From positions 192,154-256,153 of the forward strand of contig JAPLZK010000002.1 in assembly GCA_026395055.1 (NCBI GenBank): a stretch of 64,000 bases of DNA, read 5' to 3'. This stretch comes from Candidatus Uhrbacteria bacterium. Lineage in GTDB: Bacteria; Patescibacteriota; Patescibacteriia; UBA9934; GWF2-40-263. Positions 32,566 through 55,936 of this stretch are shown here, one piece after another; within the stretch, counting starts at the first letter, position 1; each line of letters starts with the position of its first letter. The notes below the pieces were generated by a model. That model was not told the DNA's origin. It made no database searches and saw only the letters and a program-made list of their open reading frames with translations. The translations under genes and the position numbers were made by a program.

Positions 32566-32808
32566 GTGGTAGATGTTAAACGTCGCAAAGGTGAAAGTTT
32601 CGAAAGTTTGCTCCGTCGCTACTCTCGCCGTCTCCAACAGTCTGGAAACGCGCTTGAAGCACGTAAACTCCGTTACTACGCGCCGAGCCCAACCAAAAAC
32701 AAGCAAAAAGTTAGTGCGATCCGTCGTCTTGAAATTCGCGATAAGCGTGATTACTTGGCTCGTATCGGACAACTCGTTGACGAACCTCGCACGCAAAAGC
32801 GTCGATAG
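32566..32808 (+). CDS. rpsU: 30S ribosomal protein S21 (GTG start)
   Basis: Basic 80-aa protein VDVKRRKGESFESLLRRYSRRLQQSG...RRLEIRDKRDY resembling S21. Confidence 0.75.
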   Translation: MVDVKRRKGESFESLLRRYSRRLQQSGNALEARKLRYYAPSPTKNKQKVSAIRRLEIRDKRDYLARIGQLVDEPRTQKRR

Positions 32809-32863
32809 TGTAAAATGAGGAGTGGATTTATCCATTCCTCTTTTTCGTTTATAATCATTGTAT

Positions 32864-33702: not shown

Positions 33703-35613
33703 ATGAAGCGTTTCTTTGACCCAAGAAACAAATCTTTTTCACACGTGACAGCCATACTTGGTATGCTGTTTCTTTGCGTTATTGGACTGTTCGTTGCGCA
33801 ACATGGTGTTCTTGCAGCAACACCATCACCGCTAGACGCTGTTGGAGCAGGGGCGGGTCTTCCACAAACAAGTTTGCCGATCTTGATTGCAAAAATTATC
33901 CGCGCCGTTCTTGGTGTGCTTGGAATCATTACAGTGATTCTTGTGATCTATGCGGGTTGGCTTTACATGAGTGCACAAGGTGATCCCACAAAGGTAGCAA
34001 AATCAAAAAAGATCATCACAAACGCCGTCATTGGTCTTGTCATTATTTTTTCTTCTTATTCCATTGCTTCGTGGATTCTCGGTAAGCTGCTTGATGCGGC
34101 GAATGGTCCGGGCACAATCGTAAGCATTGCCAAAAAATACTCAGAACCACTTGCGGGTTCACTTGGAGCGGGAATTATTGAAAGTCATTACCCAATGCGT
34201 GGCGCAACAGGTGTTCCTCGCAACACAAAAGTATTCGTCACGTTTAAAGAAGCCATTAAGCCACAAACCATCATTGATGGGTATGTATCACCCTGTACGT
34301 ATGTTGTGGCAAATCCACAAACACCCGCACTTTGTTCTACAAAATTAAAGACAGATGCGGTCGCCATGTTTGAAACAGCCAAAGGAGAAACAACCAAACT
34401 CGCAACAGACAAGGTGGTTGTAACGGTGAGTGATGATAAAAAGACCTTCGTCTTCAAACCTGTTTCGTATCTTGGAAATGCCGAAAAGGATACAAATTTT
34501 ACAGTCGCTTTGAAACCAAGTATTCAAAAAGCGGACGGAAGTGCTGCGTTTGCAGGAGTAAACTCGGCTGGATACGGATGGAACTTTACTGTATCAACCA
34601 CGGTTGATTTAACTCCACCAACCATTGTTTCCATCATCCCATCGGTTTCAGAACTTCAACCTCCAGGCGGAACGGTTGTAAATACGCTCAAGAAAAATAT
34701 TTCCGTTGAAATTACGTTCAATGAAGCCATGGATCCAATTGCTACAACGGGAACCTATCAAAAAAACGGAGGAGCAACAAAAAGTTTTCAACGCATTACA
34801 GTGGGTGATGGGAGCCCAGATCCTGTGAACGGATCGTATGATATTAGTAACTCGTATAAAACTGTTGGGTTTACAACAGTAGATGCGTGCGGAAAAGATC
34901 CGTGCGGCGGAACCATTTACTGTTTGCCAGGAGGAAAAACCATTACAGTGACAGCAAAAGCGGCCAGCATTGATGACAGTAATCCGCCACAAGGAATTTT
35001 AACGGGGGTGAATTATGATGGTGTTGTAGATGCTGCAGGAAATTCTCTAGACGGAAATGGAGACAATAAAGCGTGTGGAAGTTCAACAGATAAGGTCGCG
35101 TGTCCTGGTGCGCAAACAAATGACGACTATACATGGAATTTTCATACTTCAAATGACACAGATGATACAGTCCCAAAAATTCAATCGTTGGCACCGGATA
35201 TAAATGAGGGAAGTATTGATGTGTCGAACGATATCACCCTCACATTCAACACATTATTAAAAGCGTCAACCATTAGTTCCAGTAACATTACGCTCACTCC
35301 AGATCCAGCAACGTATATTATGTGGTTCAGTCCATCAAAGACAGACATACCAAATACACTTCCAACGGATATTGCTACTCAATCTGTCATTCACATTTCA
35401 CATCCACCATTTATTTCAAACGCAGAAGGCGGTTCTGGGTATTGGCCACGTGTCACGCAAGAAGTGAAAAGTGCGTATCAAATTTGTATGTTTCCATCTA
35501 TGGGGGACGTTACGAGTTCTGCAAAAGACTGTAATGGAGCAGATCCAGCCAAACCGTATTGTTGTAGCGGATCTCCGTCAGCTTCCGCGTGTGCCGTTCC
35601 ACTTCCAAAGTAA
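33703..35613 (+). CDS. Large surface protein (636 aa) with pilin-like N-terminal membrane module and Big/Ig-like domains
   Basis: N-terminus is signal/TM, then AATPSPLDAVGAG, then two hydrophobic helices separated by GDPTKVAKSKK. Downstream are Big-like signatures (PPTIVSIIPSVSE...ISVEITFNEAMDP) and a Cys-rich C-terminus. Confidence 0.8.
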   Translation: MKRFFDPRNKSFSHVTAILGMLFLCVIGLFVAQHGVLAATPSPLDAVGAGAGLPQTSLPILIAKIIRAVLGVLGIITVILVIYAGWLYMSAQGDPTKVAKSKKIITNAVIGLVIIFSSYSIASWILGKLLDAANGPGTIVSIAKKYSEPLAGSLGAGIIESHYPMRGATGVPRNTKVFVTFKEAIKPQTIIDGYVSPCTYVVANPQTPALCSTKLKTDAVAMFETAKGETTKLATDKVVVTVSDDKKTFVFKPVSYLGNAEKDTNFTVALKPSIQKADGSAAFAGVNSAGYGWNFTVSTTVDLTPPTIVSIIPSVSELQPPGGTVVNTLKKNISVEITFNEAMDPIATTGTYQKNGGATKSFQRITVGDGSPDPVNGSYDISNSYKTVGFTTVDACGKDPCGGTIYCLPGGKTITVTAKAASIDDSNPPQGILTGVNYDGVVDAAGNSLDGNGDNKACGSSTDKVACPGAQTNDDYTWNFHTSNDTDDTVPKIQSLAPDINEGSIDVSNDITLTFNTLLKASTISSSNITLTPDPATYIMWFSPSKTDIPNTLPTDIATQSVIHISHPPFISNAEGGSGYWPRVTQEVKSAYQICMFPSMGDVTSSAKDCNGADPAKPYCCSGSPSASACAVPLPK

Positions 35614-35622: not shown

Positions 35623-38600
35623 ATGAACCTGTATAGATTGTTCAAATCGATTTCCATTCTAGCCGTCCTTGTTTGTACGGGAATCTTTTTTGTCCACCCA
35701 GTCTTTGCAGTAAGTCCCACAGACTCCAATGCATTTTCTTCCTTTGCGGCTAGTGCGGGGTTTGCAGCGGGCCCTTCGGTGATTGTGATCATTGCACGAT
35801 TGATTCGTACATTCATTTCATTTCTGGGAGTGATTGCGGTTATCATCGTCCTTTACGGTGGGTTCATGTACATGACCGCCGGAGGAAATGACGAACGCGT
35901 CAAAAAAGCAAAAAAGATCATTCTGAATGGAATTATTGGTCTTGTTATTGTTCTTTTGTCATTTACGATCGCTCAGTTCATTGTGGGTAAGTTGGTGGCA
36001 GCAACGTCAGAGGCAGATATTTCTGCCTACTGTTTACAAAATCCAACAGATCCAACGTGTAAAAAATCACCTCCGTTTCCACCAGCGGTTCCACCGTTCA
36101 CATTGAATCCACCAACCTCTCTTATTCAATGCGCGGCAGGGATTCGTAATTTGAAATTGGTATTTGTTTTTTCAAAATCTGTAAAAGATGAAAAGGGGAT
36201 TACCGTAAAACAAAATGGCGCAGATGTTCCAGGGACGTTTTCGTTCTCCGGATCTAAAATCATGTTTGTTCCAGACGCAAAATGTGATGCCCCTAATGAC
36301 ACGCTTCATTGTTTTGCAAAAGACTCCACGTTTCATGTAGAGGTTGATTCCACAAAAGTAAAATCCTCAAATGACATCGCACTCACCTGTAAAGTTGTTG
36401 GGGGAGTAAATCCTTGTTCGTTTAATTTTACAACAGGCTCTTCTGTGGACGTGAAACCTCCACAAGAAGTTTCGTTCGTAGATCCAAAAGACGGTGCAAA
36501 AGCCATTTTGGGTTTAAGTAAAGCGCTTCAAGTAAAGACCGTTGATGATTCAGGAGTCGCAAGTGTTGATTTTTTTGCGATTGATGGAAGTGTTCCGATC
36601 AATATATCTTCTACTCCTGTAAATCCAACGGTCGCGAATGGACTCACAACCGCGAACTTCAATGGTGTTTGGGTTCCGGTAGGTCTTGAAACAAACGCAC
36701 CCTATTCCGTTTGGGCAACGGCCACAGACTGTGCAGGGAACACAAAAACTTCTAGCAAAGTTTCTCTCATGTTACGTGCACCAAACTGTGATAACAGTGC
36801 GCAAGATGCCGCGGCTCCGTATGGTGAAACAGGAAGCTGTAAGCCTGGAGAAGCGTGTGATTGTGGTGGATCATCTACAAGTCCATTTTACTGCGGACTT
36901 TGTAAACCTTCTGCATGTACAAACAGTGCGGAATGTTCATCTGGATATTGTATTGCGGGAAAATGTCAGGATGTCGCCGTGATCCAATCGGTTTCTCCAG
37001 ATAACGGTGCAGTAAACAACTTAGTAACCATTACAGGTTCTGGATTCGGAACAGTGCCGGGTACAATTGATTTTCTTGGAACAGAAAAAGAGAATACAAC
37101 AAAGTCGGCCAATGCATATCAGTGTGGAGCAAGCGTTTCGTGGTCACCAAAAGAAATTGTTGTACAGATTCCAGCCGGATCCATCGATGGTCCGTTGAAA
37201 GTAAATATTCCTGCAGTTGGAGCAGATCCCGCACAGTCTGACAGAACAGATGATGCTGTAGGTCCTGCCATGTCTTTGTTTGATGTAAACGCGATTAAGC
37301 GTCCTGGTTTGTGTTCTGTTGCTCCTGTAGCCGCAGAAGTAAATACTCCTATTACCCTTACGGGATTATCGTTTGGATCCACACAAGGTTCTTCTTCTAT
37401 TTATCTTTCGAGTTTTGAAGCAAAAGCAACCAATTGGACTGGAACAGTTCTTGGTGCAACGGTTCCTGGAGTAGAAAGTGGTAAGTATGATGCACAAGTT
37501 TTTACCGGTGATTATTTCTGTTTGAATGCAAGTGGGGTAAAGGTAAACCCAGCTGTCACCTGTTTTTCTAATGATGATTGTACAAAAGTTGATCCTGCAT
37601 ACACGTGTGGAACGTCTTGGTGTTCAGAATCACTAAAGTTTTGTCAGAATAATAGTGCGTGTGGTGTAGGAGAAGGGAAATGTGTGGATGTGCGCGTTGG
37701 ATCAAACACAAAATCTTTCGTTGCCACCAATACACCTTCTGCCTCTAAGCCGGTTATTAAATCCATCGATCCTTCCAGAAAATTGTGTTATTGGTCTGCG
37801 GATCAACTTAAACCTTTGCAAACAAAGCAGGGGCTTTCAGACACAAACTTTAATAGTTTTGTAGATTCATTGAATGGAACAACGATGGGTATTGGATCCT
37901 TGTGTTCTGCAGATACAGATTGTTCAAAAAAGATTTCAGGCGATACGTACAACGGTGTCTGTAAAGAGTATCCAAACACAGGTGGTCCCGGTCAATACAT
38001 TACGATTTACGGGTTAGGGTTTGGAACAGCGAAAGGAACGGTAAAGTTTACAGATGCAAACGAGTATTACGCTCTCGGAGACGTTTCATTTCCAGATGCT
38101 TGTGGAAAAGATTATTGGCATGATGACCACATCATTGTAAAGGTTCCAAAAAGTTACAGCAGTCAAGCGGGGGATCTCACAAATACAAATTACAACGTAA
38201 CTGTATCGACCCAAGGAAATGTTGCTTCTGATCCGGTCGCGTTTCACGTTTATCCGCAGGTTGTTCCGGGACCAAGTATTTGTTCTATTGTTCCAAGTTC
38301 GGGGCCTATTGGAACATCTGTTTCACTCATTGGAGAAAATTTTGGGTTACCTGTAACAAACACGGGGTACAATCTTCAGGCTGTTTTTACAGATAATCAG
38401 CAATCAAAACCTGGAAGTTGGGCAAATACACTTGTTTCAAATATTTTAGTTCCGGCTACGGCAAAGTCTGGTCCGGTTCATCTTGAATTTGGTTCCAACT
38501 CTCTTAATTTTACGGTGGGAAACTGTAAAACAGATTCAAAAATTGTTTGTTCAGCTGGACAAACCTGTTGCGCAAACGGAACGTGCTCGCTGTCGTGTGA

Positions 38601-41600
38601 TGACACGCCAAAAATTTCACACTTTGCTTACAAAGTTTCCACAAGTCCTTTTCCGGTCGCGCCAACGGTGGTGGTGAACTGTTCTGATCCAAAATTTGCA
38701 AAACCTTCTCCATCTCCTTCTCCGCTTTGGAGTAAGCAAGACAATATTTGTGTTACGTCTGCTGTTACGGCTTCCTTTAGTGTTGCCATGGATCCAAATA
38801 CACTCACTGCAACAAACATCAAAATCCAGAAATGTACTTCAGAAGCAAATGGGGTCTGTGCCAATTCGGGATGGCAAGATGTTGTGGGAGCATTTCAGGT
38901 CCCAAGTGCGGTTGCATTTCAATGGGCACCAACACCTCCGGCTGTGCTTGATGCGAATACGTTATATCAGGTCACCATCAAGGGTGCATCCGCTCCAGGT
39001 GGTGGCGTAAAATCAAAGGGAAGTGGATTAACCCTGGGTGTATCCATGGCCCAAGATTTTTCTTGGCAATTCCGTACATCTGCTTCAAATAAAGATTGTG
39101 GCATCGGAAGTGTGGCTGTTTCACCAGCAAATTATCTTGCGACCAATGCGAGTGAAACCATTGGGTATTTATCTCAACTCCTTTCGAATCAAGATAGCTG
39201 TATTGTCTTGTCGTGTAATCCGTACAAGGTTCGTTGGAATTCTGATACATGGAATGCAACATTTGCGCCAAGTCATACACTCACCGTTCCAGATGCTGCG
39301 GCAGATCCAGCACTCGGCTCTTGTTCTGCCTCTGTTTTTCCAGACGCAAACACCATTCCAGGATTCCCAGCACATATTTCTTCTGTCGTTATCAATGATG
39401 GGAAAAACCCGCATGCAACCGGTACAGGAAATTTGAACATTGCTCTCACAAATCCAAAGGTAAGTGATTATTTTCCAAATTGTTCTTCTGCCTGTGGAAA
39501 TGCCATGCCGTGGGTTACGTTTAACGTTGCCATGAATCCTTGGTATTTCAGCAATGCAGGAGCGATTCGTATTTTCAAATGCCAAAATAGTTTATGTGAT
39601 CAAAGTCAGGAAACGTTTCAAAATATTATTTCAGGAATCACGTACGATGCCGCAACTTATAAAGCGAAAATTGGATTAAACACATCACTCACACAAAATA
39701 CGTGGTACCGCATTGTCGTTTCTGGAACAATCAAATCTGGAACGCAGGCACCTCTTTCCAATTCCGGATCCAATTTTGGTACGTCAGAAAATAAATTCTT
39801 CTCCGGAGATTTTTCTTGGAGATTTAAAACAAAAGATTCCGCCATCTCTTGTGTGGTAGACCGTGTTGGGGTTTCTCCAAAAACAGCAACGCTTAACTAT
39901 GTTGGACAACGACAAGAATACAGCGCCACAGCTTTTGGGGCGCCAGATGATTGTTCTGTGACAGGCCAAGCTCTTCAATCAACAGGATGGGGTACATGGG
40001 GAGCAACAGATACTCCAAACAAAATCGGAGCCGCTTCTTATGTTTTGGGGGTGGATCATAAATTGAATGAAATTACAACGTTCATGTTGAATGAAGGTTC
40101 GCTCGCGCTTGCTTCTACGCTTCCAAAAACATGTGCAGCAAATTGTTTGTTTACCGGAAATCCAATCAACGTTGGACAAGCGGTCTGTGGAAACTCGTCT
40201 ATAGAAAACGGTGAATCCTGTGATGATGGCAACACAACAGACGGAGATGGCTGCTCGAGCATCTGTCTTAAAGAAGGAACGGTTGCGCCAACATGTGGAA
40301 ACGGTGCGATGAATACAGGAGAACAGTGTGATGACGGAAATACAATAGACGGCGATGGTTGTTCTTCAAAATGTTTATTTGAAGGAGCAACATCTATCAA
40401 ATCTGTTTGTGGAGATGGTGTTTGGGATCACACGGATAAGAATGGCGGAGAAGCATGTGATGATGGAAATACGAAAAATGGCGACGGTTGTAATTCAAAT
40501 TGTTTGCTTGAAGGTGGGGTCGCTGCCTACTCAAGCGCACGTTGTGGCGATGGTTCCGTTGGTGTTGGAGAAACGTGTGATGACGGAAACACTGTGGACG
40601 GTGATGGTTGTTCCTCTATTTGTCTGAATGAAGGAACCGTAAAGGGAACAGATGCCACAAAAGCTCAGTGTGGAAATGGTGTTACAAACGTTGGAGAAGA
40701 TTCCGGATGTGATCTTGGCGTTGGATCTGTTGCTCCAGGCTGTTCCACAAAATGTTTGAAACTGGGTTCAAGTCCAAGTTATCCTTCGCCATCTATCTGT
40801 GGAAACGGAGGGGCTTTGGAAACAGGGGAACAATGTGAAGCTGCGGCAGGTGCATCTTATGTAGCGGGTCCTTACGGAGTTGCAGAAGTTTCTCCTGGTG
40901 CTTCAGTTGAGGTGGAAAAGGATATCACAAAAGCAACATTCGGTTATGCGATTTCAAATGTTTCTGCAACAGTAGGTGGAAAAACAGGAGTGGGTGAATT
41001 TAAGTTGCTTTGTTCTTGTGAGGCAGACAACCAGTGCGGAACAAAATCTGGAGATCCAACAAAGACGCTTGGTTGCGGTGCTTCAAAGTGCTGTTATGAA
41101 CGTCCGGCTATTACCGCATCCGCACCGGGGGATAATGCAACAGGCGTTTGTCGTAATACCGCGATCTCGTTTACGTTTGATCAAGAAATGGATGCGAATA
41201 GTTTTGGGTCCGTTGATTTGGATGGAGATGGAAAAATCTCTACCGCAGAGACAGATCCAAATTTGCAGCTCGAGTTGATTACCATGAAATCCGCATTGGG
41301 AGTTGATGAAAATGTAACAGCGGCAAATTGTCCGTATTATGCTCAACCGGTCGGATTCTTACATGCAAAGAATTTGCTTGTATCTGCTTGGAATTGGATT
41401 AAGGGCTTGTTTGGTCAACCCGCGATGGCAAACGCCACAACACAATGTTACGTTCCAACAACGTATGAACAAGATCCAGCAACGCACCAAGTGTATCTCA
41501 GATATACAGAGCGTTTGTTGCCACTCGCGAAATATAAATTAACCGTGAAAACAAAAAACGGAAATGCAAAAGGAATCTTGAGTAAAAATCAGGTCAGTAT

Positions 41601-44600
41601 TTGTCTCGGAGACAATGGAACGGCTTGTCAGTCTGTTTCACAAACAAATACGTTTACGACCGGATCGGATATTTGTTTGCTGGATGTTGCGCAGACAACA
41701 GATGAGGGAATCACACCAGCACCACCTTCATATCTTTCAACAAGTCCTGGGTATTATTCAAAAACAAACGAAACGCACAATTTTAGTGTGAAGCCTCTTT
41801 CGTATCGAAAAAATACAGGTTTGTTGGAAGAAATTACATCCATTCCGAATGTGTATTCCTGGACATGGAGTTGGGGGGCTCCTGTGAAAGATACGGGAAC
41901 AAATGTTGATATTTTGGGAACGATTGCAGTAAGCACAACAAGCAACTCGCAATATAAAGCGCTTGGAAAAAATGGTTCTGGCGATGTTATTGCAACAGCA
42001 ACCATTACATCAGATGCGGTAAGCAAGGTTTCTACAACCGGATCCGGAGTTTCCGGTCATGTCTCAGAAGTTGCCTTCTTGTGTGAAAACCCATGGCCAG
42101 ATTTGGCACACGGTGTTCCGTTTGTGGAAACGGGGGCTAACACAAACTTCTCTCTCTTTTATTGTCGCGACATTGGAAAACCCGGAGAAGGAAAAATGCT
42201 TCCTGTACTTGCGCTTCCTCCAACAGACGCAACACCAGATCAAAAGATTATTAACACAAACGTGTTGAAGGAGTTAGTGTTCCATGTTGAAGGAACGAAA
42301 GACTCTATTGGGGTGCGCGTGCTCTCGAATCCAAAATATTTGTCTCCATTGGCATGGTTTCAATCTCAAGGATTTACGGGAACGCCAAAAACAACAACAC
42401 TTGATGGGTACGAAGCTGTTCAGACAGGTACAACCATTTATGCGGCCGCGGCAAATAGAAATGGTTCAAATCTCTACTCAAACATTTACGTTGTTTCATT
42501 TAACTCAGATGCAGGAAAAGATGCACAAGATATTTTTGATCTCGTGCTCAAAAATTTCCACTTGAATGCGAATGACACAGGTGCTACGGGTGTTTCACAT
42601 GTTGGTTTGTGTATGAGTGGAAACGCCTATACGCCAATTGCAGGCCCATTCGTCGCGTGTTCATGGGACGGAGATTGTTTGAATCAATGTAAACCAGAAG
42701 GAAAATGTTCTGTAACAGGAACCGTCTGTGATCCTAAACTAGGAAATACAGAATGTGCCGCAGATCCAAATGCGTTCTGTGATGCGGATAAACAAAAATT
42801 GATTCGTGACACCAAGCGTTTGACGGATATGACAAGCATGGTCGCTACGTTTGAAAAATATGGATCTTCACACGGTCATTGTTCCGTTACAAAAAATCAA
42901 ACATGTTCCACGAATGCACAGTGTTCCGGAACAGAAACGTGTGTTCCAGGTTATCCAACGGTGCAATCCGGTACATTTATTCCATCCATGAGTAACAGTA
43001 TTTGGCCTTCATGGAACAGTACGCTCGGAAATGCGGTGGGTGGAGCACTTCCAACAGATCCGCTTAACCAATACTGGGCACAATGTAAAAACGTAGGAGC
43101 AGGTTATGACTCTGCAACGTGTTGGAACAGTACACAAGGAAAATTTGTGTGTCCGGATGGTTCGCATGTGTACGGATATCAAAACCAGGGCGGAGAAGAT
43201 TACACATTATCTACAGAACTTGAATACGGTGCAGTTGCTTGGGTGAATAAGATTGATCAATCCGCATCAGACCATGCAACCATTCAAGCGTCGTATGGCT
43301 TAAACAAATCGCCAGCTGGATTGTTAGATGGATTTACGATCGCTCCACAATATTGCAACGCAACCACGTTTGGAAGTTCAACCATTTGTGGAGATGGTGT
43401 GAAGGGGGTTGGAGAAGCGTGTGAAAAAGGAGAAGTTAAATCTATTGCGTGCGCGGCAGGCGCTGGGTTTATTAACGTGACATGTAAGAGTGATTGTTCG
43501 GATTTCCAAGATGAAGCTGCGGCAAAAGCTGCGGGAGCAACCTGTAAACCATTCGCTTGTGGAAATGGAGTAAAAGATCCAGGAGAAACGTGTGATGACG
43601 GTGCATTAAACGGTACGTACGGACACTGTGGGGCAAACTGTACCCTTGCAAACGCATTTTCTTGTGGTGACGGTTACCTTGCCGGAAACGAACAGTGTGA
43701 TTGTGGAACGCCAACAAACTTCTCAACGCTTGCCGGAGCAAGCTGGGCAAAATCGAATAATCACTGCGATACCTATAATGGTGGATATTCCGCGACCGGA
43801 AAAAACTGTACGGTTGACTGCAAGCTTCCAGGACCAATGTGTAGCGACGCGATTGTGAACGACTCTTCTGAAGTTTGCGATAAGAGTACAGAAACGTATG
43901 CGGGAGCATTGAATGCGGATGGAACAAAGTGTAACGCATCATCTGGATGTGCAGTTGCCGCGTGTACAAAATCTAAAATTTGTACAGCGGGAACAAATAT
44001 TGGATCGACCTGTACAACTGACCTAAATTGTCCGACAGATGCAGCGGATGTTTGCGCATCAGATACTTGTGTGGCAAAAAAATGTTCCGCAAGTGGGAAG
44101 GCATGCGGAACAAATGCAGACTGTGTGGGTAAATGTTCCGTTAGCGGAAAGCTTTGTGGAACGACAGCAGATTGTGCGGGGAAATGTTCTGCTGAGCTAT
44201 ACGATCTAACCAGAACGCGCACGTGTCAGAATTATGGCACTTCACCCGTCTCTCAAGCGTGCTCATGGATAACGAATGCAAATAGTGGATGGGGAGACTG
44301 TGCAGGTGGTCCACAACAATGTGGAAATGGGAAAAAGGAAGGAGCAGAAGAGTGTGATGATGGAAATAGTTCAGATAATGATTCTTGTACAAACGCTTGT
44401 AAGTTGAATGTTTGCGGTGACAACAAAGTAAACGTCGGAATCGAATCCTGTGATAGTGGTGGAGCAAACGGAACCGTTTGTAACGCAGCATACGGTGCAA
44501 GCTGTAACTTCTGTAATAAATTCTGTCAGTACAAAACACAATCTGGTCCGTATTGTGGAGATGGAGTGATAAATGGAAATGAGTATTGTGATGGAAATGA

Positions 44601-45633
44601 TATTCCACGTCAGTGCTTCAAAGCGGATTCGGCAAAGTGTGCGGGTGGAACAAATGCGGCAGGTAAGGCGAGCAACGGAAAAGTTTGTGATCAATCGAAT
44701 CCATGTGGAGGTGATGCAAAGTGTGGTGATCAATCAAACCCGCAAGTTGCGGGAACCTGTTCAAAACAAGATGAAGGGAAAGTTGGTGGTCAATTAGGAT
44801 TTGAATGTTCCATCAGTCACACCTATTGCCGACCAAAAGGAACGTGTTGGGACGGAACGAATCCGGATGTTGCGAACGTTTGTACATCGAGTGCAGATTG
44901 TCCAAACGGCGGATCATGCGTGAATGATTCTGGATGTTATGGTGGGTACGGTGATTGTGTTCCAGCTCCAAAAGCATTTACTGGTTGTGATGCGGGGTAT
45001 ACGTGCCGTTTGGTTGGATCTTGTAATGGCGGAGACTCAAACGGGGAAAATGGAAAATTATGTACGACAGGAGGGCTTGGTTGGGAGTATTATCCAGATA
45101 ATAATAAAAATTATTGCGATCACACGTACACAAATGGAGTTGATACTGGTTCTGGAACCTGTCAGGTTCCGGTCTGTGGACCAAATTGCGGAAGCACCTG
45201 TCCAACCGCCTTCCAAAAAGTTTCTCTGCAAGTCCAAGGAAATGTAGCTGAGTCACAACCATCAAGTAATATTAATTTATATAGTTTCCAAAACGCTGCC
45301 GGTCAATCGCCAGATAGAGCAAGTATTCTTTTGCCTGCATGTCGCGTTGGGTCTAGTATCACAGCCGATATTGCAACCGGAAGTGCGCTTCTGAATACGG
45401 GGAATAACGCACAAATAATCGCGGCAACAAAAATAGATGCCAATGGAAAATATGTAAATGCTCAAACACAGACAGATATATTTGGTATCGGAAACGGAAT
45501 TAAACTGCCACTCCCAACCAAGTTTATCTGTCATGATGTTCCATTCTCTCTTCCGTTCAATGTAACACTCAATCCTCCGGCAGCATCGTCCGTTTCAATG
45601 AAGAACTTCGAGTTTACCTATTGTCCGCTTTAA
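35623..45633 (+). CDS. Giant surface protein (3336 aa): pilin-like N-module, Big/Ig-like and IPT/TIG domains, Myxococcus-type Cys-rich repeats
   Basis: Uninterrupted 10 kb ORF starting 9 nt after the previous stop. N-module matches the upstream paralog. IPT/TIG-like segments (IQSVSPDNGAVNNLVTITGSGFG; PSICSIVPSSGPIGTSVSLIGENFG) and more than 12 repeats of CG(N/D)Gx4-6GExCDDGNxxDGDGCSxxC. Confidence 0.85.
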   Translation: MNLYRLFKSISILAVLVCTGIFFVHPVFAVSPTDSNAFSSFAASAGFAAGPSVIVIIARLIRTFISFLGVIAVIIVLYGGFMYMTAGGNDERVKKAKKIILNGIIGLVIVLLSFTIAQFIVGKLVAATSEADISAYCLQNPTDPTCKKSPPFPPAVPPFTLNPPTSLIQCAAGIRNLKLVFVFSKSVKDEKGITVKQNGADVPGTFSFSGSKIMFVPDAKCDAPNDTLHCFAKDSTFHVEVDSTKVKSSNDIALTCKVVGGVNPCSFNFTTGSSVDVKPPQEVSFVDPKDGAKAILGLSKALQVKTVDDSGVASVDFFAIDGSVPINISSTPVNPTVANGLTTANFNGVWVPVGLETNAPYSVWATATDCAGNTKTSSKVSLMLRAPNCDNSAQDAAAPYGETGSCKPGEACDCGGSSTSPFYCGLCKPSACTNSAECSSGYCIAGKCQDVAVIQSVSPDNGAVNNLVTITGSGFGTVPGTIDFLGTEKENTTKSANAYQCGASVSWSPKEIVVQIPAGSIDGPLKVNIPAVGADPAQSDRTDDAVGPAMSLFDVNAIKRPGLCSVAPVAAEVNTPITLTGLSFGSTQGSSSIYLSSFEAKATNWTGTVLGATVPGVESGKYDAQVFTGDYFCLNASGVKVNPAVTCFSNDDCTKVDPAYTCGTSWCSESLKFCQNNSACGVGEGKCVDVRVGSNTKSFVATNTPSASKPVIKSIDPSRKLCYWSADQLKPLQTKQGLSDTNFNSFVDSLNGTTMGIGSLCSADTDCSKKISGDTYNGVCKEYPNTGGPGQYITIYGLGFGTAKGTVKFTDANEYYALGDVSFPDACGKDYWHDDHIIVKVPKSYSSQAGDLTNTNYNVTVSTQGNVASDPVAFHVYPQVVPGPSICSIVPSSGPIGTSVSLIGENFGLPVTNTGYNLQAVFTDNQQSKPGSWANTLVSNILVPATAKSGPVHLEFGSNSLNFTVGNCKTDSKIVCSAGQTCCANGTCSLSCDDTPKISHFAYKVSTSPFPVAPTVVVNCSDPKFAKPSPSPSPLWSKQDNICVTSAVTASFSVAMDPNTLTATNIKIQKCTSEANGVCANSGWQDVVGAFQVPSAVAFQWAPTPPAVLDANTLYQVTIKGASAPGGGVKSKGSGLTLGVSMAQDFSWQFRTSASNKDCGIGSVAVSPANYLATNASETIGYLSQLLSNQDSCIVLSCNPYKVRWNSDTWNATFAPSHTLTVPDAAADPALGSCSASVFPDANTIPGFPAHISSVVINDGKNPHATGTGNLNIALTNPKVSDYFPNCSSACGNAMPWVTFNVAMNPWYFSNAGAIRIFKCQNSLCDQSQETFQNIISGITYDAATYKAKIGLNTSLTQNTWYRIVVSGTIKSGTQAPLSNSGSNFGTSENKFFSGDFSWRFKTKDSAISCVVDRVGVSPKTATLNYVGQRQEYSATAFGAPDDCSVTGQALQSTGWGTWGATDTPNKIGAASYVLGVDHKLNEITTFMLNEGSLALASTLPKTCAANCLFTGNPINVGQAVCGNSSIENGESCDDGNTTDGDGCSSICLKEGTVAPTCGNGAMNTGEQCDDGNTIDGDGCSSKCLFEGATSIKSVCGDGVWDHTDKNGGEACDDGNTKNGDGCNSNCLLEGGVAAYSSARCGDGSVGVGETCDDGNTVDGDGCSSICLNEGTVKGTDATKAQCGNGVTNVGEDSGCDLGVGSVAPGCSTKCLKLGSSPSYPSPSICGNGGALETGEQCEAAAGASYVAGPYGVAEVSPGASVEVEKDITKATFGYAISNVSATVGGKTGVGEFKLLCSCEADNQCGTKSGDPTKTLGCGASKCCYERPAITASAPGDNATGVCRNTAISFTFDQEMDANSFGSVDLDGDGKISTAETDPNLQLELITMKSALGVDENVTAANCPYYAQPVGFLHAKNLLVSAWNWIKGLFGQPAMANATTQCYVPTTYEQDPATHQVYLRYTERLLPLAKYKLTVKTKNGNAKGILSKNQVSICLGDNGTACQSVSQTNTFTTGSDICLLDVAQTTDEGITPAPPSYLSTSPGYYSKTNETHNFSVKPLSYRKNTGLLEEITSIPNVYSWTWSWGAPVKDTGTNVDILGTIAVSTTSNSQYKALGKNGSGDVIATATITSDAVSKVSTTGSGVSGHVSEVAFLCENPWPDLAHGVPFVETGANTNFSLFYCRDIGKPGEGKMLPVLALPPTDATPDQKIINTNVLKELVFHVEGTKDSIGVRVLSNPKYLSPLAWFQSQGFTGTPKTTTLDGYEAVQTGTTIYAAAANRNGSNLYSNIYVVSFNSDAGKDAQDIFDLVLKNFHLNANDTGATGVSHVGLCMSGNAYTPIAGPFVACSWDGDCLNQCKPEGKCSVTGTVCDPKLGNTECAADPNAFCDADKQKLIRDTKRLTDMTSMVATFEKYGSSHGHCSVTKNQTCSTNAQCSGTETCVPGYPTVQSGTFIPSMSNSIWPSWNSTLGNAVGGALPTDPLNQYWAQCKNVGAGYDSATCWNSTQGKFVCPDGSHVYGYQNQGGEDYTLSTELEYGAVAWVNKIDQSASDHATIQASYGLNKSPAGLLDGFTIAPQYCNATTFGSSTICGDGVKGVGEACEKGEVKSIACAAGAGFINVTCKSDCSDFQDEAAAKAAGATCKPFACGNGVKDPGETCDDGALNGTYGHCGANCTLANAFSCGDGYLAGNEQCDCGTPTNFSTLAGASWAKSNNHCDTYNGGYSATGKNCTVDCKLPGPMCSDAIVNDSSEVCDKSTETYAGALNADGTKCNASSGCAVAACTKSKICTAGTNIGSTCTTDLNCPTDAADVCASDTCVAKKCSASGKACGTNADCVGKCSVSGKLCGTTADCAGKCSAELYDLTRTRTCQNYGTSPVSQACSWITNANSGWGDCAGGPQQCGNGKKEGAEECDDGNSSDNDSCTNACKLNVCGDNKVNVGIESCDSGGANGTVCNAAYGASCNFCNKFCQYKTQSGPYCGDGVINGNEYCDGNDIPRQCFKADSAKCAGGTNAAGKASNGKVCDQSNPCGGDAKCGDQSNPQVAGTCSKQDEGKVGGQLGFECSISHTYCRPKGTCWDGTNPDVANVCTSSADCPNGGSCVNDSGCYGGYGDCVPAPKAFTGCDAGYTCRLVGSCNGGDSNGENGKLCTTGGLGWEYYPDNNKNYCDHTYTNGVDTGSGTCQVPVCGPNCGSTCPTAFQKVSLQVQGNVAESQPSSNINLYSFQNAAGQSPDRASILLPACRVGSSITADIATGSALLNTGNNAQIIAATKIDANGKYVNAQTQTDIFGIGNGIKLPLPTKFICHDVPFSLPFNVTLNPPAASSVSMKNFEFTYCPL
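40180..40860 (+). repeat. Tandem array of ~6 degenerate ~110-120-bp coding repeats (Cys-rich CGNG...CDDGN...DGCS modules)
   Basis: Repeated tgtgga(a/g)a(c/t)gg...tgtgatga(t/c)gg(a/c)aa...ga(c/t)gg(t/c)tg(t/c)tc units read in the sequence. Confidence 0.75.
43380..44620 (+). repeat. Second, more dispersed array of the same Cys-rich module (at least 6 copies)
   Basis: CGDGVKGVGEACEKGE, CGNGVKDPGETCDDG, CGDGYLAGNEQCDCG, CGNGKKEGAEECDDGNSSDNDSC, CGDNKVNVGIESCDSG, CGDGVINGNEYCDGND. Confidence 0.7.
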
Positions 45634-45642: not shown

Positions 45643-46428
45643 ATGGATTTCGGTGATCATCCCGCACAGCCAAGACGCATCTCAAGAAAACTCGTCCTCA
45701 TTATTCTTGGGGGAATTGTTTTGGCTGGTGGGATCTTCTGGGGAGTTTTTTCCCTGATCCATCAGAATGCTCCGTTGACGACTTCAAGTTCTTCTTTATC
45801 AAACGTCTTTGGGAACTCTGCGCAAACTTCATCTGATCCGTGTGTGCAAACTTCGGACGCAAGTGTCTGTAAGATTACAAAAGCAAAAGATCTTGCAATC
45901 TCTTCCAAAAAACCTGATGCTTGTGACGTTCTCAAAGATGCAGATAAAAATGATTGTTACTGGAGTGTTGCGCGCGTAGCAAATGACGCCTCGATATGTG
46001 GAAAAATAGCTGATAAAGATATTTCCGCGCGTTGCTCGACGGAATTAAGTGCATCCGCGGCTTTTTCCGCGTCAGATGGAACGTTGTGTGATAAAATAGG
46101 GGACGTAAATGTGAAATCAAACTGTCAGAAGGTAATCACTTCAACAAAGGATCTCGTTTGCGCAAGCACAGATACAGATTGTCTGTTTACACGAGTGCTC
46201 GCAGCGGCAAATCAGGCACAAGATTCAGATGTCTGTAATGTTCTTGACCCAAAGCGTGAAGCGGATTGTAGAGCGCAGGTTCTTGTGAACGACCCAGATC
46301 ATGATGGTCTTGATTCCACCCAAGAAATCGTCTTGTATCACACAGATCCGCATAATGCAGATACGGATGGTGATGGGTACTCCGATGGTTCGGAAGTGAA
46401 TTCGGGACACGATCCTTTGAAAAAGTAA
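45643..46428 (+). CDS. Membrane-anchored Cys-rich protein with C-terminal TSP3/dockerin-like Ca-binding repeat pair
   Basis: N-terminal TM (LVLIILGGIVLAGGIFWGVF), 16 Cys in the ectodomain, C-terminus DPDHDGLDSTQEIVLYHTDPHNADTDGDGYSDGSEVNSGHDP. Confidence 0.7.
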   Translation: MDFGDHPAQPRRISRKLVLIILGGIVLAGGIFWGVFSLIHQNAPLTTSSSSLSNVFGNSAQTSSDPCVQTSDASVCKITKAKDLAISSKKPDACDVLKDADKNDCYWSVARVANDASICGKIADKDISARCSTELSASAAFSASDGTLCDKIGDVNVKSNCQKVITSTKDLVCASTDTDCLFTRVLAAANQAQDSDVCNVLDPKREADCRAQVLVNDPDHDGLDSTQEIVLYHTDPHNADTDGDGYSDGSEVNSGHDPLKK

Positions 46429-46476: not shown

Positions 46477-47112
46477 ATGTTTGATGAAATTTCAAAAGAA
46501 CCAGAGGATGTGTTCGCACAAACGGACGCTGCAGCGCCGCAAATGACGCCACCAACCATGAACGCACCTCAACCTACCGTTGCGCCAGCGCCTGCAATGG
46601 CCGCCGCGTCTGCTCCGGTTATCGTGTCAGCATCTGAAAAAAGACCGTTTCCATGGAAACTTGTCGTTCTTTTTGTGGCGATTGTTGTTGTTGTTGGACT
46701 CGCGTTTTTCCTTAGCATGAAAATTCTCAACTCTCGTACGCCTGTTACGCCATCCGCACCTGTTGAAACTGCACAGCCTGCGACACAGGTTCCAACTCCA
46801 GAAGTTCCCGCTGTTGCACCCACAACAACACCTGTTGATCAAACTGCGCCAGCCCCAACTCCTGTTGTCGATCAAACACTCGATTCAGATAAAGATGGTC
46901 TGACGGATGTTCGCGAAGCACAACTCGGAACCAATCCAAATAATCCAGATACAGATGGAGACGGCTTGTTTGATAAGGAAGAGGTGGATGTTTACCACAC
47001 AAATCCATTAAATCCAGATACAGACGGAGATGGATTCAAAGATGGTGATGAAGTTAAGAAAGGATATAATCCAAATGGCCCAGGAAAACTTCTTCAAATT
47101 CCTCAAAAATAA
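46477..47112 (+). CDS. Single-pass membrane protein with Pro/Thr-rich linker and two DxDxDG Ca-binding repeat pairs
   Basis: TM LVVLFVAIVVVVGLAFFL, linker PVTPSAPVETAQPATQVPTPEVPAVAPTTTP, then DSDKDGLTDVREAQLGTNPNNPDTDGDGLFDKEEVDVYHTNPLNPDTDGDGFKDGDEV. Confidence 0.7.
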   Translation: MFDEISKEPEDVFAQTDAAAPQMTPPTMNAPQPTVAPAPAMAAASAPVIVSASEKRPFPWKLVVLFVAIVVVVGLAFFLSMKILNSRTPVTPSAPVETAQPATQVPTPEVPAVAPTTTPVDQTAPAPTPVVDQTLDSDKDGLTDVREAQLGTNPNNPDTDGDGLFDKEEVDVYHTNPLNPDTDGDGFKDGDEVKKGYNPNGPGKLLQIPQK

Positions 47113-47114
47113 GT

Positions 47115-48113
47115 ATGGCGGACCAGATGCTCCAACAACCCGTGACGCAAACGTCAACGCAAAACACACCTGATCAAGTGCGTGTGTTTGCGATGCCAGC
47201 ACGTTATCGTCACGGTGCGGTTGTGAATATGGTTGAACCCGTAAAAGCATCTGCCCCAACAGCCATTGTTCAGCCACCCGTTCCGCCAAAAGTTCTCGCG
47301 CCCATTCCGTCTGCACTTCCACAAAAACAACAGCCTTCACAGACAAAAAAAGGGTTATTGGTTGCTGGAGTCATTGTTCTTATTGCTCTTGGAATTGGCG
47401 GTTATCTTTTGTGGCGTAGTGTACAAAAAAATAAAGAAGCGATTCCTGTGGAACAACCTTCGCAAACGCAAACAACTTCTGAGACTCCGGCAATAACCCC
47501 AGCCACACCCGTTACAACACCTGTGACAACAGGAACGGTTCCATCAACAAATCCATTCCCGTCCGCGGTAACGCCTGGAGTAGATACGGATTCAGACGGT
47601 CTGACGGATATTGAAGAAACAATTGTCTACGGAACCAATCCAAATTTACCCGACACAGATGGTGACGGGTTCCTAGACGGAAATGAAGTTTTTCACGGAT
47701 ATAATCCAAACGGAACAGCTCCTGGGACACTTGAACTTGCCGGACTCGCACAAATGCTGAAGATCGACGGAATTCAGATGTTGTACCCAATGAAATGGAC
47801 CGTTCTCCCCGCATCTTCAGGAACAGGATCTGTTGTTTCAACAACAACAGGTGAAAGTGTTACGGTGAGTATTCTTGCAAAAGATGCATCGCTTTCTCTT
47901 TCCGATTGGTATCAACAATCCGGAAAAGCAGGAGCTCCCTCTAGCTCGAAGAGCAGAAAAGGGTACCCAATGCTCGTGGATAAAAACCAGTTGGGTGTGT
48001 ATTTAGATCTTGGAACACAGGTGGTGAGTCTGATTTATGACACGTCCACAAAAGCAACCATAGATTATCTTCAGACATTTCAAATGATGGTGAATAGTGT
48101 AGAAAAAATATGA
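47115..48113 (+). CDS. Single-pass membrane protein with Pro/Thr-rich linker, DxDxDG repeat pair and C-terminal beta-rich domain
   Basis: TM LLVAGVIVLIALGIGGYLLW, then DTDSDGLTDIEETIVYGTNPNLPDTDGDGFLDGNEVFHGYNPNG. Paralogous to the two preceding genes. Confidence 0.7.
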   Translation: MADQMLQQPVTQTSTQNTPDQVRVFAMPARYRHGAVVNMVEPVKASAPTAIVQPPVPPKVLAPIPSALPQKQQPSQTKKGLLVAGVIVLIALGIGGYLLWRSVQKNKEAIPVEQPSQTQTTSETPAITPATPVTTPVTTGTVPSTNPFPSAVTPGVDTDSDGLTDIEETIVYGTNPNLPDTDGDGFLDGNEVFHGYNPNGTAPGTLELAGLAQMLKIDGIQMLYPMKWTVLPASSGTGSVVSTTTGESVTVSILAKDASLSLSDWYQQSGKAGAPSSSKSRKGYPMLVDKNQLGVYLDLGTQVVSLIYDTSTKATIDYLQTFQMMVNSVEKI

Positions 48114-50242: not shown

Positions 50243-50454
50243 GTGCAAATAATTTGAGTGAAACAAAACATGTCTCTTCGGCATGTTTTTCTTTTTTTGG
50301 CCAGTTTATCTATCCACAGTTGCGATTTTGTTTTCTTGACTTCCCCTTTGACGATGTTACAGTGTCATTACAATTTTTGTGCGCAAACAAAGGAAAAGTG
50401 AACAATAATAGTGTTCATCTTCGCACAAAACTTATTCGATTGAATACGAAATAT

Positions 50455-51789
50455 ATGGCACAAGTGAAACCTGACATCGAAACGTTTGCTAAGATTAAAG
50501 TTGTGGGAATTGGTGGGGGCGGAAGCGCTGCTATTAATCGCATGATCTCTGACAACATCAAGGGTGTTGAATTTATTGTTATCAATACAGACGTTCAAGC
50601 ATTGAACCAAAACTTGGCAGCAACAAAAATCGCAATTGGAAAAACCATTACACGCGGTCTTGGTGCGGGAATGAATCCAGAAGTTGGAGCACGCGCCGCG
50701 GAAGAAACACAAAATGAAATCCGTGAAGCGCTCATGGGTTCTGATATGGTGTTCCTTACGTGTGGACTCGGAGGCGGAACCGGAACGGGTGCAATCCCAG
50801 AAGTTGCAAAACTTGCAAAGGACATTGGTGCACTTACAGTTGCAGTTGTCACAAAGCCGTTTACGTTCGAAGGTGCACAACGTCGTCGCATTGCAGATGA
50901 AGGTTTTGAGAAGGTTATGAAGTATGTTGATGCGATCATCACCATTCCAAACGATCGAGTTCTCCAGATTATCGACAAAAAGACTTCTCTCATGGATGCG
51001 TTTAAAGTTGTTGACGATGTTCTTCGTCAGGGTGTGCAGGGAATTGCCGAACTTATTACCGTTCCTGGACTCATCAACGTTGACTATGCCGATGTAAAGG
51101 CCATCATGGAATCAAGCGGTTCAGCCCTCATGGGAATCGGTCGAGCGAGCGGTGAGAACCGAGCGGTGGAAGCGGCAAAGCAAGCAATTGCAAGTCCTTT
51201 GCTTGAACTCTCCATCGATGGTGCACGCGGAATCTTGTTTACCATTACGGGTGGAAGCGATCTTGGAATGCATGAGGTTGCAGAGGCGGCCAAGATCATT
51301 ACAAGCTCAGCAGATGAAGACGCGAAAGTGATCTTTGGAGCAAACATCGACGATTCTCTTGGAGACGAAATTCGTATCGCCGTCGTTGCCACAGGATTTG
51401 ATTCTCGTGAACGCCGCACAACGTCACCAGGTGTTGTAGAGGTACAAGCACAGGGAACTTGGGCGCCAAACACCTTCTTGCGTGTGCGTGAAGAAGAAAG
51501 CCTTCCGCGTCCAGCTCCACGTCCAAAAGTAAATTTTCAATCTCCCGCAAAACCAATGATGGAAACTCCGCGTCCTCAAATGGAGATGCGTAGAGAAACA
51601 TATAATCCGCCAACACCCATCATGGCGCCTTCCCCCGCTCCAGCACCAGCTCCCATGCCCATGATGATGCAACAGCAGGAAGCTCCGGTGCGCATTGCGC
51701 CAAGACCGATGCCTGTTATGCAATCACCGCAGCAGTCTCAAGAAGACGAGATTGAGATTCCTGCATTTATCAGAAAGAAAATGATCTAA
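50455..51789 (+). CDS. ftsZ: Cell division protein FtsZ
   Basis: Tubulin signature GGGTGTG, VKIKVVGIGGGGSAAINRM, and a Pro-rich C-terminal tail with conserved C-terminal peptide IEIPAFIRKK. ATG at 50455. Confidence 0.95.
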   Translation: MAQVKPDIETFAKIKVVGIGGGGSAAINRMISDNIKGVEFIVINTDVQALNQNLAATKIAIGKTITRGLGAGMNPEVGARAAEETQNEIREALMGSDMVFLTCGLGGGTGTGAIPEVAKLAKDIGALTVAVVTKPFTFEGAQRRRIADEGFEKVMKYVDAIITIPNDRVLQIIDKKTSLMDAFKVVDDVLRQGVQGIAELITVPGLINVDYADVKAIMESSGSALMGIGRASGENRAVEAAKQAIASPLLELSIDGARGILFTITGGSDLGMHEVAEAAKIITSSADEDAKVIFGANIDDSLGDEIRIAVVATGFDSRERRTTSPGVVEVQAQGTWAPNTFLRVREEESLPRPAPRPKVNFQSPAKPMMETPRPQMEMRRETYNPPTPIMAPSPAPAPAPMPMMMQQQEAPVRIAPRPMPVMQSPQQSQEDEIEIPAFIRKKMI

Positions 51790-55291: not shown

Positions 55292-55394
55292 CATCGAGTG
55301 TTTTTCATTGACAATCTTTCGAAAATCGACTAGGATCATCAATCCTCAGCGTTGGGGATACAGGCGCACAATTCCAACAATTGGAGGTGAATTC

Positions 55395-55916: not shown

Positions 55917-55936
55917 TGCGTGTAAGGGGGATGTAC

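Follow-up and report, generated by a model that had tools for sequence, protein, structure and literature searches.

What does an ultra-small, uncultured bacterium of the Candidate Phyla Radiation (CPR, or Patescibacteria) do with a protein of more than 3,000 amino acids (aa), and what could hold such a protein at the cell? The CPR are a large and mostly uncultured group thought to live attached to other cells. The question is raised by a single gene, referred to below as the giant, in a stretch of 64,000 nucleotides from a Candidatus Uhrbacteria genome (contig JAPLZK010000002.1, positions 192,154 to 256,153 of the forward strand; hereafter the window). An earlier note, made from the letters alone, had described this gene by its immunoglobulin (Ig)-like segments and cysteine repeats. 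According to the analysis presented here, the first ~130 residues of the giant are, as judged from sequence, a complete conjugation-type (VirB2-like) pilin, and on balance we lean towards reading the whole protein as a VirB2-type pilin of modular build, forming a giant fibre or adhesin at the cell surface that contacts other cells. The gene and its modules are as follows.

35623..45633, + strand: giant gene, ATG start, 3336 aa, without internal stop.
35623..35709, + strand: predicted Sec signal peptide, aa 1-29, with a putative cleavage site between HPVFA and VSP; lies within hydrophobic aa 3-33 and is collinear with the leaders of small pilins.
35776..35997, + strand: VirB2-like pilin module (PF18895, T4SS_pilin), aa 52-125, two hydrophobic helices with a basic loop.
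36100..36777, + strand: two Ig-like beta-sandwich domains, aa ~160-385 (weak Big_3_2 and Big_7 matches).
36778..36972, + strand: short Cys-rich linker, aa 386-450 (9 Cys in aa 401-500, most of them kept in orthologs).
36979..38517, + strand: four IPT/TIG domains, aa 453-965, the third with a variable insert at ~aa 701-800.
38620..40182, + strand: stalk of Big_5-type and unassigned beta-rich domains, aa 1000-1520 (Big_5 segment matches).
40186..40902, + strand: Cys-repeat array 1, six TIGR02232/DUF4215 units (profiles and motif listing).
41101..41622, + strand: Big_5 domain, aa 1827-~2000 (E 2.1e-6), with an EF-hand-like DxDxDG loop at aa 1861-1876.
42040..43386, + strand: core module, aa 2140-2588 (no Pfam match; AlphaFold2 model and phmmer family).
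43387..44652, + strand: Cys-repeat array 2, seven variant units in two groups, aa 2589-2740 and 2900-2978 (motif listing and profiles).
44653..45234, + strand: lineage-specific Cys-rich expansion, aa ~3011-3204 (gap fraction 0.43-0.85 in the ortholog alignment).
45235..45630, + strand: conserved C-terminal domain ending in FTYCP (alignment).

The giant was scanned against Pfam both whole and as ten overlapping segments, and the whole protein also against NCBIfam. For the pilin family PF18895, with a cut-off of 26.6 bits, the whole protein scores 32.3 bits, and the segment aa 1-140 scanned by itself reaches 43.4 bits (match at aa 57-120). Hydropathy yields three hydrophobic segments in the entire sequence (aa 3-33, 49-88, and 95-128), and the loop between the two pilin helices, AGGNDERVKKAK, carries 4 Lys or Arg residues. 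With aa 30-135 as the query, 97 proteins were retrieved, and only two of them are without a precomputed PF18895 match. Nearly all are stand-alone proteins of 113-173 aa with 36-67% identity to the giant (50-63% for the best 30), and a few bear the NCBI name 'pilin'. According to the alignment, the giant is collinear with the entire small pilins from the leader on, shares the motif GGFxWMTAGGN with them, and begins its ectodomain precisely where they stop, at AATS. Since the small pilins are matched over their whole length, the giant amounts to a full VirB2-like pilin with a C-terminal extension of ~3,200 residues. Across 32 orthologs the identity within aa 51-100 is 0.68, compared with ~0.45 overall, and is the highest of the N-terminal half. 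Regarding size, the giant with its 3336 aa falls outside the range of VirB2/TrbC pilins, which consist of the module only (~100-170 aa). The N_methyl family (PF07963) and a class III signal peptide gave no match on the giant.

Two of the small relatives were looked up, and each belongs to a tandem pilin array of the kind reported for Patescibacteria (PMC12102498). These arrays, at L050 (8788-11372) and L052 (10001-12530), are made up of five to six small PF18895 genes, one of which encodes 247 aa, and the array of L052 is located ~7 kb from dnaA/dnaN, adjoining unannotated genes of 452 and 519 aa.

Other routes of export and anchoring were tried and rejected. The giant has neither an LPXTG motif nor any hydrophobic segment after aa 128, its C-terminus reading NFEFTYCPL; the sole leader Cys lies in LVC, a poor lipobox for a lipoprotein; no RTX or type I secretion system (T1SS) signal is present; and it has no domains of a Rhs-type toxin carrier.

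As for the integrity of the gene, the earlier statement that a single 10-kb open reading frame (ORF) takes ~16% of the window is confirmed: the frame is intact over 3336 aa and covers 10,011 of the 64,000 bases (15.6%). A Logan contig of run SRR20698644 aligns to window positions 30282-53017 with 99.991% identity and zero gaps and encodes an identical giant protein; this second assembly probably shares its source reads with the assembly of the window. The protein is identical to an NCBI entry on a 339-kb contig, 'MAG: IPT/TIG domain-containing protein [Candidatus Uhrbacteria bacterium]' (MAG, metagenome-assembled genome), and its GC content (0.43-0.45) is close to that of the neighbouring genes. 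An artefact, be it a chimeric assembly, collapsed repeats, or the chance read-through of a pseudogene, is suggested only by the general risk attached to repeat-rich metagenomic genes, and we consider its probability practically negligible. Collapsed repeats are ruled out by the gap-free second assembly, which gives the same ORF without indels, together with at least 32 full-length collinear orthologs (3.2-3.6 thousand residues) from many samples. The degeneracy of the repeats in DNA, which had been put forward earlier as speaking against an artefact, also does so here, as Tandem Repeats Finder reports no tandem DNA array in the repeat regions and the copies of the repeat unit are mutually 60-80% identical.

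Beyond the pilin module, the profiles reproduce the domain grammar that had been read directly from the translation, namely TIG, Big_5/SbsA-type Ig, and TIGR02232/DUF4215 units. These are modules of adhesin type and typical of extracellular proteins, and the description of the protein as a surface giant is upheld; most orthologs have a VWA-like insert in addition. TIG (PF01833) is found in 4 stretches of the whole giant with an E-value of 5.6e-15 and 55.5 bits against a curated cut-off of 20.9. Segment matches lie at aa 453-533 and 884-958, and the remaining two stretches can be placed by eye at about aa 556-650 and 710-880. Big_5 (PF13205) reaches 40.3 bits on the whole protein (E 5.8e-10, curated cut-off 23.6). 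By segment, the matches at ~aa 1040-1150 (E 3.1e-5, 25.1 bits) and aa 1827-1862 (E 2.1e-6, 28.8 bits) pass this cut-off, and that at ~aa 1297-1380 (E 0.0035, 18.5 bits) is under it. The EF-hand_5 match to the loop region at aa 1861-1876 has an E-value of 0.0029, under its own cut-off. The first Ig-like domain is paralogous to the first Big_5 domain of the gene directly upstream (BLASTP E 8e-21 over pilin module and first domain). A sequence search of the Protein Data Bank (PDB) with the whole giant, this 636-aa upstream paralog, and a 332-aa partner encoded downstream gave no significant matches.

The cysteine repeats are detected by TIGR02232 (myxo_disulf_rpt; E 2.6e-41, 139.1 bits, cut-off 20.8) and by DUF4215 (PF13948; E 3.8e-10, 40.3 bits, cut-off 27), each in 5 stretches of the whole giant. 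By segment, DUF4215 has 4 stretches in aa 1520-1830 (77.8 bits) and 3 in aa 2600-3336. Listing by motif yields 13 units of the form CG[DN]G…E.C in groups of 6, 4, and 3, starting at aa 1522, 1558, 1596, 1641, 1683, 1726, 2589, 2646, 2681, 2740, 2900, 2931, and 2978. Thus, the earlier count of over 12 repeats stands on a loose motif count, but only 5 to 7 units individually pass a profile threshold. The division into two arrays of TIGR02232-type units is borne out, with six units at aa 1522-1726 and seven from aa 2589 on, the latter in two groups split by a lineage-specific Cys-rich insert.

The same note had also proposed that the repeats are a hotspot of copy-number variation, and this idea does not survive. 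There are no tandem DNA repeats, the array regions show ~0% gaps in the alignment of 32 orthologs, and segment lengths are near-constant across orthologs. Column-by-column inspection of the units, which covered array 1 (aa 1522-1760), revealed Cys positions that are invariant or at least 90% conserved in 22 orthologs only 35-71% identical. Near-gapless arrays, conserved Cys, and constant segment lengths together imply that the number of units is old and fixed, and with the 60-80% identity of the units they rule out the hotspot. The blocks aa 2651-2700 and 2901-3000 are among the top-conserved of the giant (identity 0.60-0.70 in the 32 orthologs).

The protein has 183 Cys in total, 182 of which are in the ectodomain. 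As previously noted, its C-terminal third is Cys-dense, most blocks of aa 2301-3200 having 8-14 Cys per 100 aa (two blocks have 4 and 6). The ectodomain Cys count is even in 31 of the 32 orthologs, ranging from 162 to 194, and the chance of at least 31 even counts out of 32 is ~8e-9. At least 90% of orthologs keep 147 of the 183 Cys, and the non-conserved ones cluster at aa ~3011-3204. Even counts are what would be expected if all ectodomain cysteines were paired in disulfides outside the cell and came and went two at a time, and they would fit an extracellular fibre in which every Cys is bonded. For aa 1515-1830, AlphaFold2 gave a model of low confidence (predicted local distance difference test, pLDDT, 61.3; predicted template modelling score, pTM, 0.33), with units nearly devoid of regular secondary structure. 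One unit matches aa 878-913 of pappalysin-2 (PDB 8sl1; E 3.4e-4, four Cys aligned), so an experimental structure of a homologous Cys unit exists; a match of one unit to pappalysin-1 has an E-value of 0.011 with all four Cys aligned.

Between the two arrays lies the core module. Segment scans of aa 2150-2620 (~470 aa) gave zero Pfam matches, though the region is well conserved. A phmmer search with aa 2140-2625 against 1.84 billion cluster representatives (50%-identity clusters) returned 1244 matches with E-values up to 1e-3, including 1099 up to 1e-10. Full-length matches are mostly situated at positions ~2000-2600 of proteins of 2-4 thousand residues, and many of the shorter ones resemble fragments. 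Among the 87 new representatives of at least 2500 aa, 84 have a pilin module within their first 200 residues. The AlphaFold2 model of the core module has a mean pLDDT of 84.4 and a pTM of 0.86. It suggests a Mog1/PsbP-like alpha-beta-alpha sandwich at ~aa 2214-2314, with which Foldseek agrees weakly, and further shows a Cys-stabilised part and, at ~aa 2389-2416, a long basic helix. Binding proteins without enzymatic function give the best fold matches; for the remaining ~300 aa of the model, this helix and the Cys-stabilised part included, no convincing solved-structure analogue was found, and no enzyme fold appeared.

Towards the C-terminus, the segment aa 3000-3200 of the window protein is 200 aa long, compared with ~90 aa for most orthologs. 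In the more distant aligned orthologs (P0010, P0016, P0027, P0034, and P0041) the C-terminal domain contains a ~250-aa VWA-like insert with the DxTxS sequence VFVTDLTGSM. According to the alignment, this insert is cleanly absent from the window protein (at aa ~3262-3290, window ~45406-45492) and from P0002, P0006, and P0007, and P0003-P0005 have the same short ~136-aa C-terminus as the window clade. A Pfam VWA match is recorded for a subset of orthologs.

A search with the whole giant returned 98 relatives, of which ~60 are full-length (3.0-3.9 thousand residues), with identities of 26-63%; the named full-length ones belong to Uhrbacteria or the 'Patescibacteria group'. The 32 full-length orthologs that were aligned are collinear throughout, the variable regions being aa 701-800, 2801-2850, and 3001-3200. 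In a scan of GTDB species genomes 42 loci were detected, which belong to Uhrbacteria, Falkowbacteria, Komeilibacteria, and unnamed Patescibacteria. A CPR-type pilin-giant is encoded in about 20 GTDB MAG records that bear the title 'uncultured Gammaproteobacteria bacterium', probably a placeholder mislabel (TPA_asm, binchicken/SRP co-assemblies; loci L016-L018, L020-L022, L025-L027, L029, L030, L032, L039, L040, L044, L045, and L047). To compare rates of divergence, identities to three related loci, L002, L003, and L004, are given below in this order.

Giant: 63%, 42%, and 37%.
HtrA: 71%, 52%, and 47%.
YbeY: 88%, 53%, and 50%.
FtsA: 95%, 81%, and 77%.

Judged by these values, the divergence of the giant resembles that of the envelope protease HtrA and exceeds that of FtsA, and the protein does not appear hypervariable.

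The giant is the second gene of a five-gene cassette, the other four members of which are listed here.

33703..35613, + strand: upstream paralog, 636 aa, with a VirB2-like pilin module, two Big_5 domains, and a Cys-rich tail (Pfam, BLASTP).
45643..46428, + strand: gene 3, 261 aa, single transmembrane (TM) segment at aa 13-40, Cys-rich ectodomain, TSP3 repeat (Pfam, hydropathy).
46477..47112, + strand: gene 4, 211 aa, single TM segment at aa 55-87, Pro/Thr-rich linker, three TSP3 (Ca-binding-type) repeats.
47115..48113, + strand: gene 5, 332 aa, single TM segment at aa 76-104, TSP3 repeats, ~130-aa unassigned C-terminal domain.

Gene 4 matches TSP3_bac with an E-value of 1.5e-20. The intergenic gaps are 9, 9, 48, and 2 nt, and gene 5 then overlaps ybeY by 4 nt. 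With small differences in the flanks, the order signal peptidase I (SPase I)-histidyl-tRNA synthetase (HisRS)-(S21)-YqeY-pilin-Big_5 paralog-giant-TSP3-TSP3-protein of ~330-390 aa-YbeY-DAGK-FtsA-FtsZ is found in all seven related contigs (L003-L007 among them being named, distinct, and readable assemblies), and it extends to giants only 26-28% identical, including one Kerfeldbacteria genome. As for the flanks, two loci have other genes replacing SPase I-HisRS and one is without YqeY. The pilin-Big_5 paralog precedes the giant in six of the seven; the Kerfeldbacteria locus is without it and has a 503-aa Big_7 protein after the giant. Each examined contig has one copy of the giant. This conservation of architecture and position across Uhrbacteria, Falkowbacteria, Komeilibacteria, and Kerfeldbacteria argues for a core, vertically inherited envelope organelle and not for an accessory or mobile adhesin.

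In L002 (1-6670), the closest relative, the giant of which is 63% identical, type IV pilus genes directly precede S21-YqeY and the cassette at the place where the window has SPase I-HisRS; the set consists of PilC/T2SSF, N_methyl pilins, PilM, and a 945-aa beta-propeller protein. Promoter and terminator scans of 32.4-52.3 kb of the window gave counts at or below the shuffled expectation. A terminator-like hairpin with a 10-bp stem and a T-run is located at 32817-32840 (+), after the S21-like gene (Logan call ~32566-32808), and would set this gene apart from YqeY and the cassette, the entire scan not exceeding chance. On the other side, the FtsZ ORF at 50254-51789 (+) gives 511 aa from a TTG start, with the tubulin domain beginning at aa 80, and Logan places the start at ~50455 (444 aa). 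A terminator-like hairpin at 50265-50289 falls inside the long version, which makes the shorter start likelier.

If the giant is indeed a pilin-anchored surface fibre, the following order of events may be proposed. The leader would direct Sec export and then be cleaved. In the usual topology of VirB2, the helices form a hairpin with the basic loop in the cytoplasm. Inserted in this way, the hairpin of the giant would leave the whole C-terminal extension outside the cell, where ~91 disulfides would brace it as a long, folded stalk. From ~12 beta-sandwich domains and 13 small units, its length may be roughly estimated at 50-100 nm. The EF-hand-like loop of the giant and the TSP3 repeats of its partners hint at a possible further stabilisation by calcium. 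At the membrane, the giant would work together with its 636-aa paralog and with the three TSP3 proteins of the cassette, each of which spans the membrane once. Its membrane-distal end, where the core module is combined with conserved Cys units and with a C-terminal domain that bears a VWA-like domain in most lineages, could be the part that touches a partner (host) cell or polymer.

Several points weigh against this interpretation. Localisation, disulfides, calcium binding, and adhesion are all inferred for every member of the family. No ligand-binding site was found in the giant, and the window clade has lost the VWA-like domain, the clearest candidate for an adhesive tip. Host-specific adhesins are usually variable in domain content, so that a fixed architecture, moderate divergence, and proximity to ftsA/ftsZ are not typical of them; the same architecture, divergence, and position equally fit a structural role in the envelope. 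The operon structure of the cassette is read from gene spacing, promoter and terminator scans not being above chance. Finally, the low-confidence AlphaFold2 model of the Cys array (pLDDT 61) gives no support to rigidity of the stalk.

The structural role would mean that the giant and its partners form a permanent coat or scaffold serving integrity, shape, or division, S-layer-like or as a spacer, and not adhesion. A single copy per contig, a core-genome position fixed between SPase I-HisRS-YqeY and YbeY-DAGK-FtsA-FtsZ, nearly invariant architecture and segment lengths, and an LCP ligase, an M23 peptidase, and signal peptidase I nearby are all in its favour. However, the anchor is a single membrane hairpin, SLH, LysM, and CWB families have no matches on the giant, most orthologs have a VWA-like domain, and the membrane-distal part is the most variable, as expected of a binding tip; we therefore consider a purely structural role quite unlikely. 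A secreted carrier of an effector or enzyme, with a catalytic or toxic module that would, for example, degrade a host cell wall, could hide in the ~470 aa without Pfam match (aa 2150-2620) and in the ~300 aa of the modelled core without a solved analogue. Pfam and NCBIfam scans of the giant, however, yielded no hydrolase, peptidase, nuclease, or toxin family, the best fold matches of the core are non-enzymatic binding proteins, and Rhs/YD or polymorphic-toxin features are absent, which makes this explanation very improbable.

A different possibility takes the pilin module at its word. In pili of the VirB2/TraA type the C-terminus of the pilin faces outward, which makes a C-terminal extension topologically possible: a type IV secretion system (T4SS) would extract the pilin module of the giant and polymerise it with array pilins, and the ectodomain would be displayed at the tip or sparsely along the pilus. 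Such a protein would be the T4SS counterpart of the modular type IV pilins of Streptococcus sanguinis. The module is 50-63% identical to, and fully collinear with, the free-standing pilins of tandem arrays, and it is conserved far beyond the need of a passive anchor. VirB2-like pilins and T4SS are widespread in Patescibacteria, and a survey of ~3,000 of their genomes detected no T4SS adhesin (PMC12102498); in Saccharibacteria, one genetic study found T4SS genes and the VirB2-like pilin genes in their cluster to be essential for epibiotic growth (Wang et al. 2023, PMC10633639). On the other hand, neither a pilin array nor VirB4, VirB6, or any other T4SS gene was found near the giant, either among the ORFs of at least 145 aa in the 64-kb window or in the 10-kb flanks of the seven related loci, and the T4SS loci of ABY1 are reported beside comF/recG/radA (PMC12102498), not at the position of the giant. 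Besides, a packed helical filament has no room for 3,200 additional aa per subunit, which would make the giant a rare subunit at best, and its co-assembly with array pilins is a supposition. We consider a pilus-borne adhesin rather unlikely. It appears unlikely as well that the giant and the 636-aa paralog function as VirB2-type pilin subunits, loaded into a conjugation-type pilus or nucleating one. If true, it would mean that ABY1-class CPR carry an undescribed 'decorated' T4SS-type filament with a disulfide-locked adhesive stalk of ~3,200 residues, that the giant is the missing adhesin of the Patescibacteria T4SS, and that the cassette beside ftsA/ftsZ is the locus of a core host-contact organelle.

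The rest of the window is that of an ordinary CPR chromosome. It encodes SecY, Adk, Map, RecO, two class-II aminoacyl-tRNA synthetases, ScpA/B, ParA/B, RelA/SpoT, TopA, DprA, Pth, and Der, and further genes are those for an LCP protein, M23 peptidase, SPase I, HisRS, YqeY, YbeY, DAGK, FtsA, FtsZ, and NrdR, along with HtrA, pyruvate kinase, IF-3, and four tRNAs. The two class-II synthetases (6167-7501 and 8072-9385, both +; tRNA-synt_2 and OB anticodon domain; 444 and 437 aa, respectively) are paralogs separated by a 570-nt gap and presumably form a pair of AspRS/AsnRS type. A tRNA cluster at 15145-15635 has tRNA-Leu(CAA) between two tRNA-Met(CAT) on opposite strands, and tRNA-Asp is located at 58679-58756. 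A Macro-domain protein is encoded at 57219-58001 (+), and a full RelA/SpoT (HD, RelA_SpoT, and TGS) is present at 18427-19947 (-) in this reduced genome. For ten ORFs of 166-400 aa, Pfam gave nothing at E-values up to 1e-3; some of them overlap other ORFs and may not be genes.

13400-13939 (-): ORF without Pfam match.
14015-14515: ORF without Pfam match.
15752-16657: ORF without Pfam match.
19983-21185: ORF without Pfam match.
29727-30239: ORF without Pfam match.
55143-55916: ORF without Pfam match.
55841-56512: ORF without Pfam match.
56591-57232: ORF without Pfam match.
59743-60660 (-): ORF without Pfam match.
62572-63747 (-): ORF without Pfam match.

Read as a pilin-anchored surface fibre, the giant offers a concrete candidate for the link between CPR pilins and adhesion. 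As a stable, old, and vertically inherited gene it is less exotic than the idea of a copy-number hotspot would have made it, and being kept at one chromosomal position across several candidate phyla it provides a convenient syntenic marker. Its ~480-aa core module occurs in more than 1,000 sequence clusters and is described by no domain database. The protein itself is already deposited under an automatic name, and precomputed Pfam matches list the same domains. In the searchable literature no description was found of a VirB2-like pilin with a giant ectodomain, of the five-gene cassette with its fixed position, or of the core module.

Among known systems, VirB2-like pilins and their tandem arrays have been reported in Patescibacteria (PMC12102498, PMC10633639, PMC12857230). 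The first ~130 aa of the giant belong to the same family, PF18895, and are collinear with these VirB2/TrbC-like pilins in leader, two helices, and basic loop. In contrast to them, the giant is ~25 times longer, with a C-terminal ectodomain of 3,200 aa, and lies outside pilin arrays and T4SS loci, paired with one 636-aa paralog in a separate cassette. Large Cys-rich extracellular proteins of CPR, e.g., in Peribacteria, with weak similarity to Myxococcus repeats and pappalysin (PMC4736985), and the giant membrane proteins of Vampirococcus (PMC8080830) share with it the size, the predicted extracellular location, the Cys-rich composition, and a proposed role in cell attachment. Those proteins, however, are strain-variable and have FG-GAP, WD40, and PKD domains, whereas the window giant has a fixed architecture, unit number, and locus and, unlike them, a VirB2-like pilin anchor. 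Pam pili of Saccharimonadia and Microgenomatia, built of small Sec-secreted pilins by donor-strand exchange with PapD-like chaperones (bioRxiv 10.64898/2026.03.03.709456), are likewise CPR surface filaments of Ig-like folds implicated in host contact. Identity with them is ruled out by their donor-strand exchange assembly and by their lack of a VirB2-like module, and no chaperone-like gene was detected by Pfam in the cassette of the giant.

Regarding the cysteine units, TIGR02232/DUF4215 and pappalysin-1 and -2 (PDB 8sl1, 7ufg, 8a7d) have the same four-Cys unit, CG[DN]G…GE.CDDGN…DGC…C. Pappalysins are eukaryotic metalloproteases with one such unit, whereas the giant has 13 in three groups, several of them with long inserts. 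Giant Ig-repeat adhesins of other bacteria, among them LPXTG-anchored ones of MSCRAMM type and T1SS-exported ones of RTX/Bap type, resemble the giant in their long Ig-like stalks, distal binding region, and calcium-binding elements; the giant differs in having an N-terminal anchor and no LPXTG motif, C-terminal TM segment, RTX, or T1SS signal, as well as in repeats that are not near-identical and in its extreme Cys content. In Streptococcus sanguinis, the modular type IV pilins PilB and PilC consist of a pilin module fused to a vWA or lectin module. The design, a pilin plus an adhesive module, is the same, and most orthologs of the giant also have a VWA-like module. The S. sanguinis proteins, however, belong to an unrelated class of pilins with a class III signal peptide, whereas the giant combines a VirB2-like hairpin with an extension ~ten times larger.

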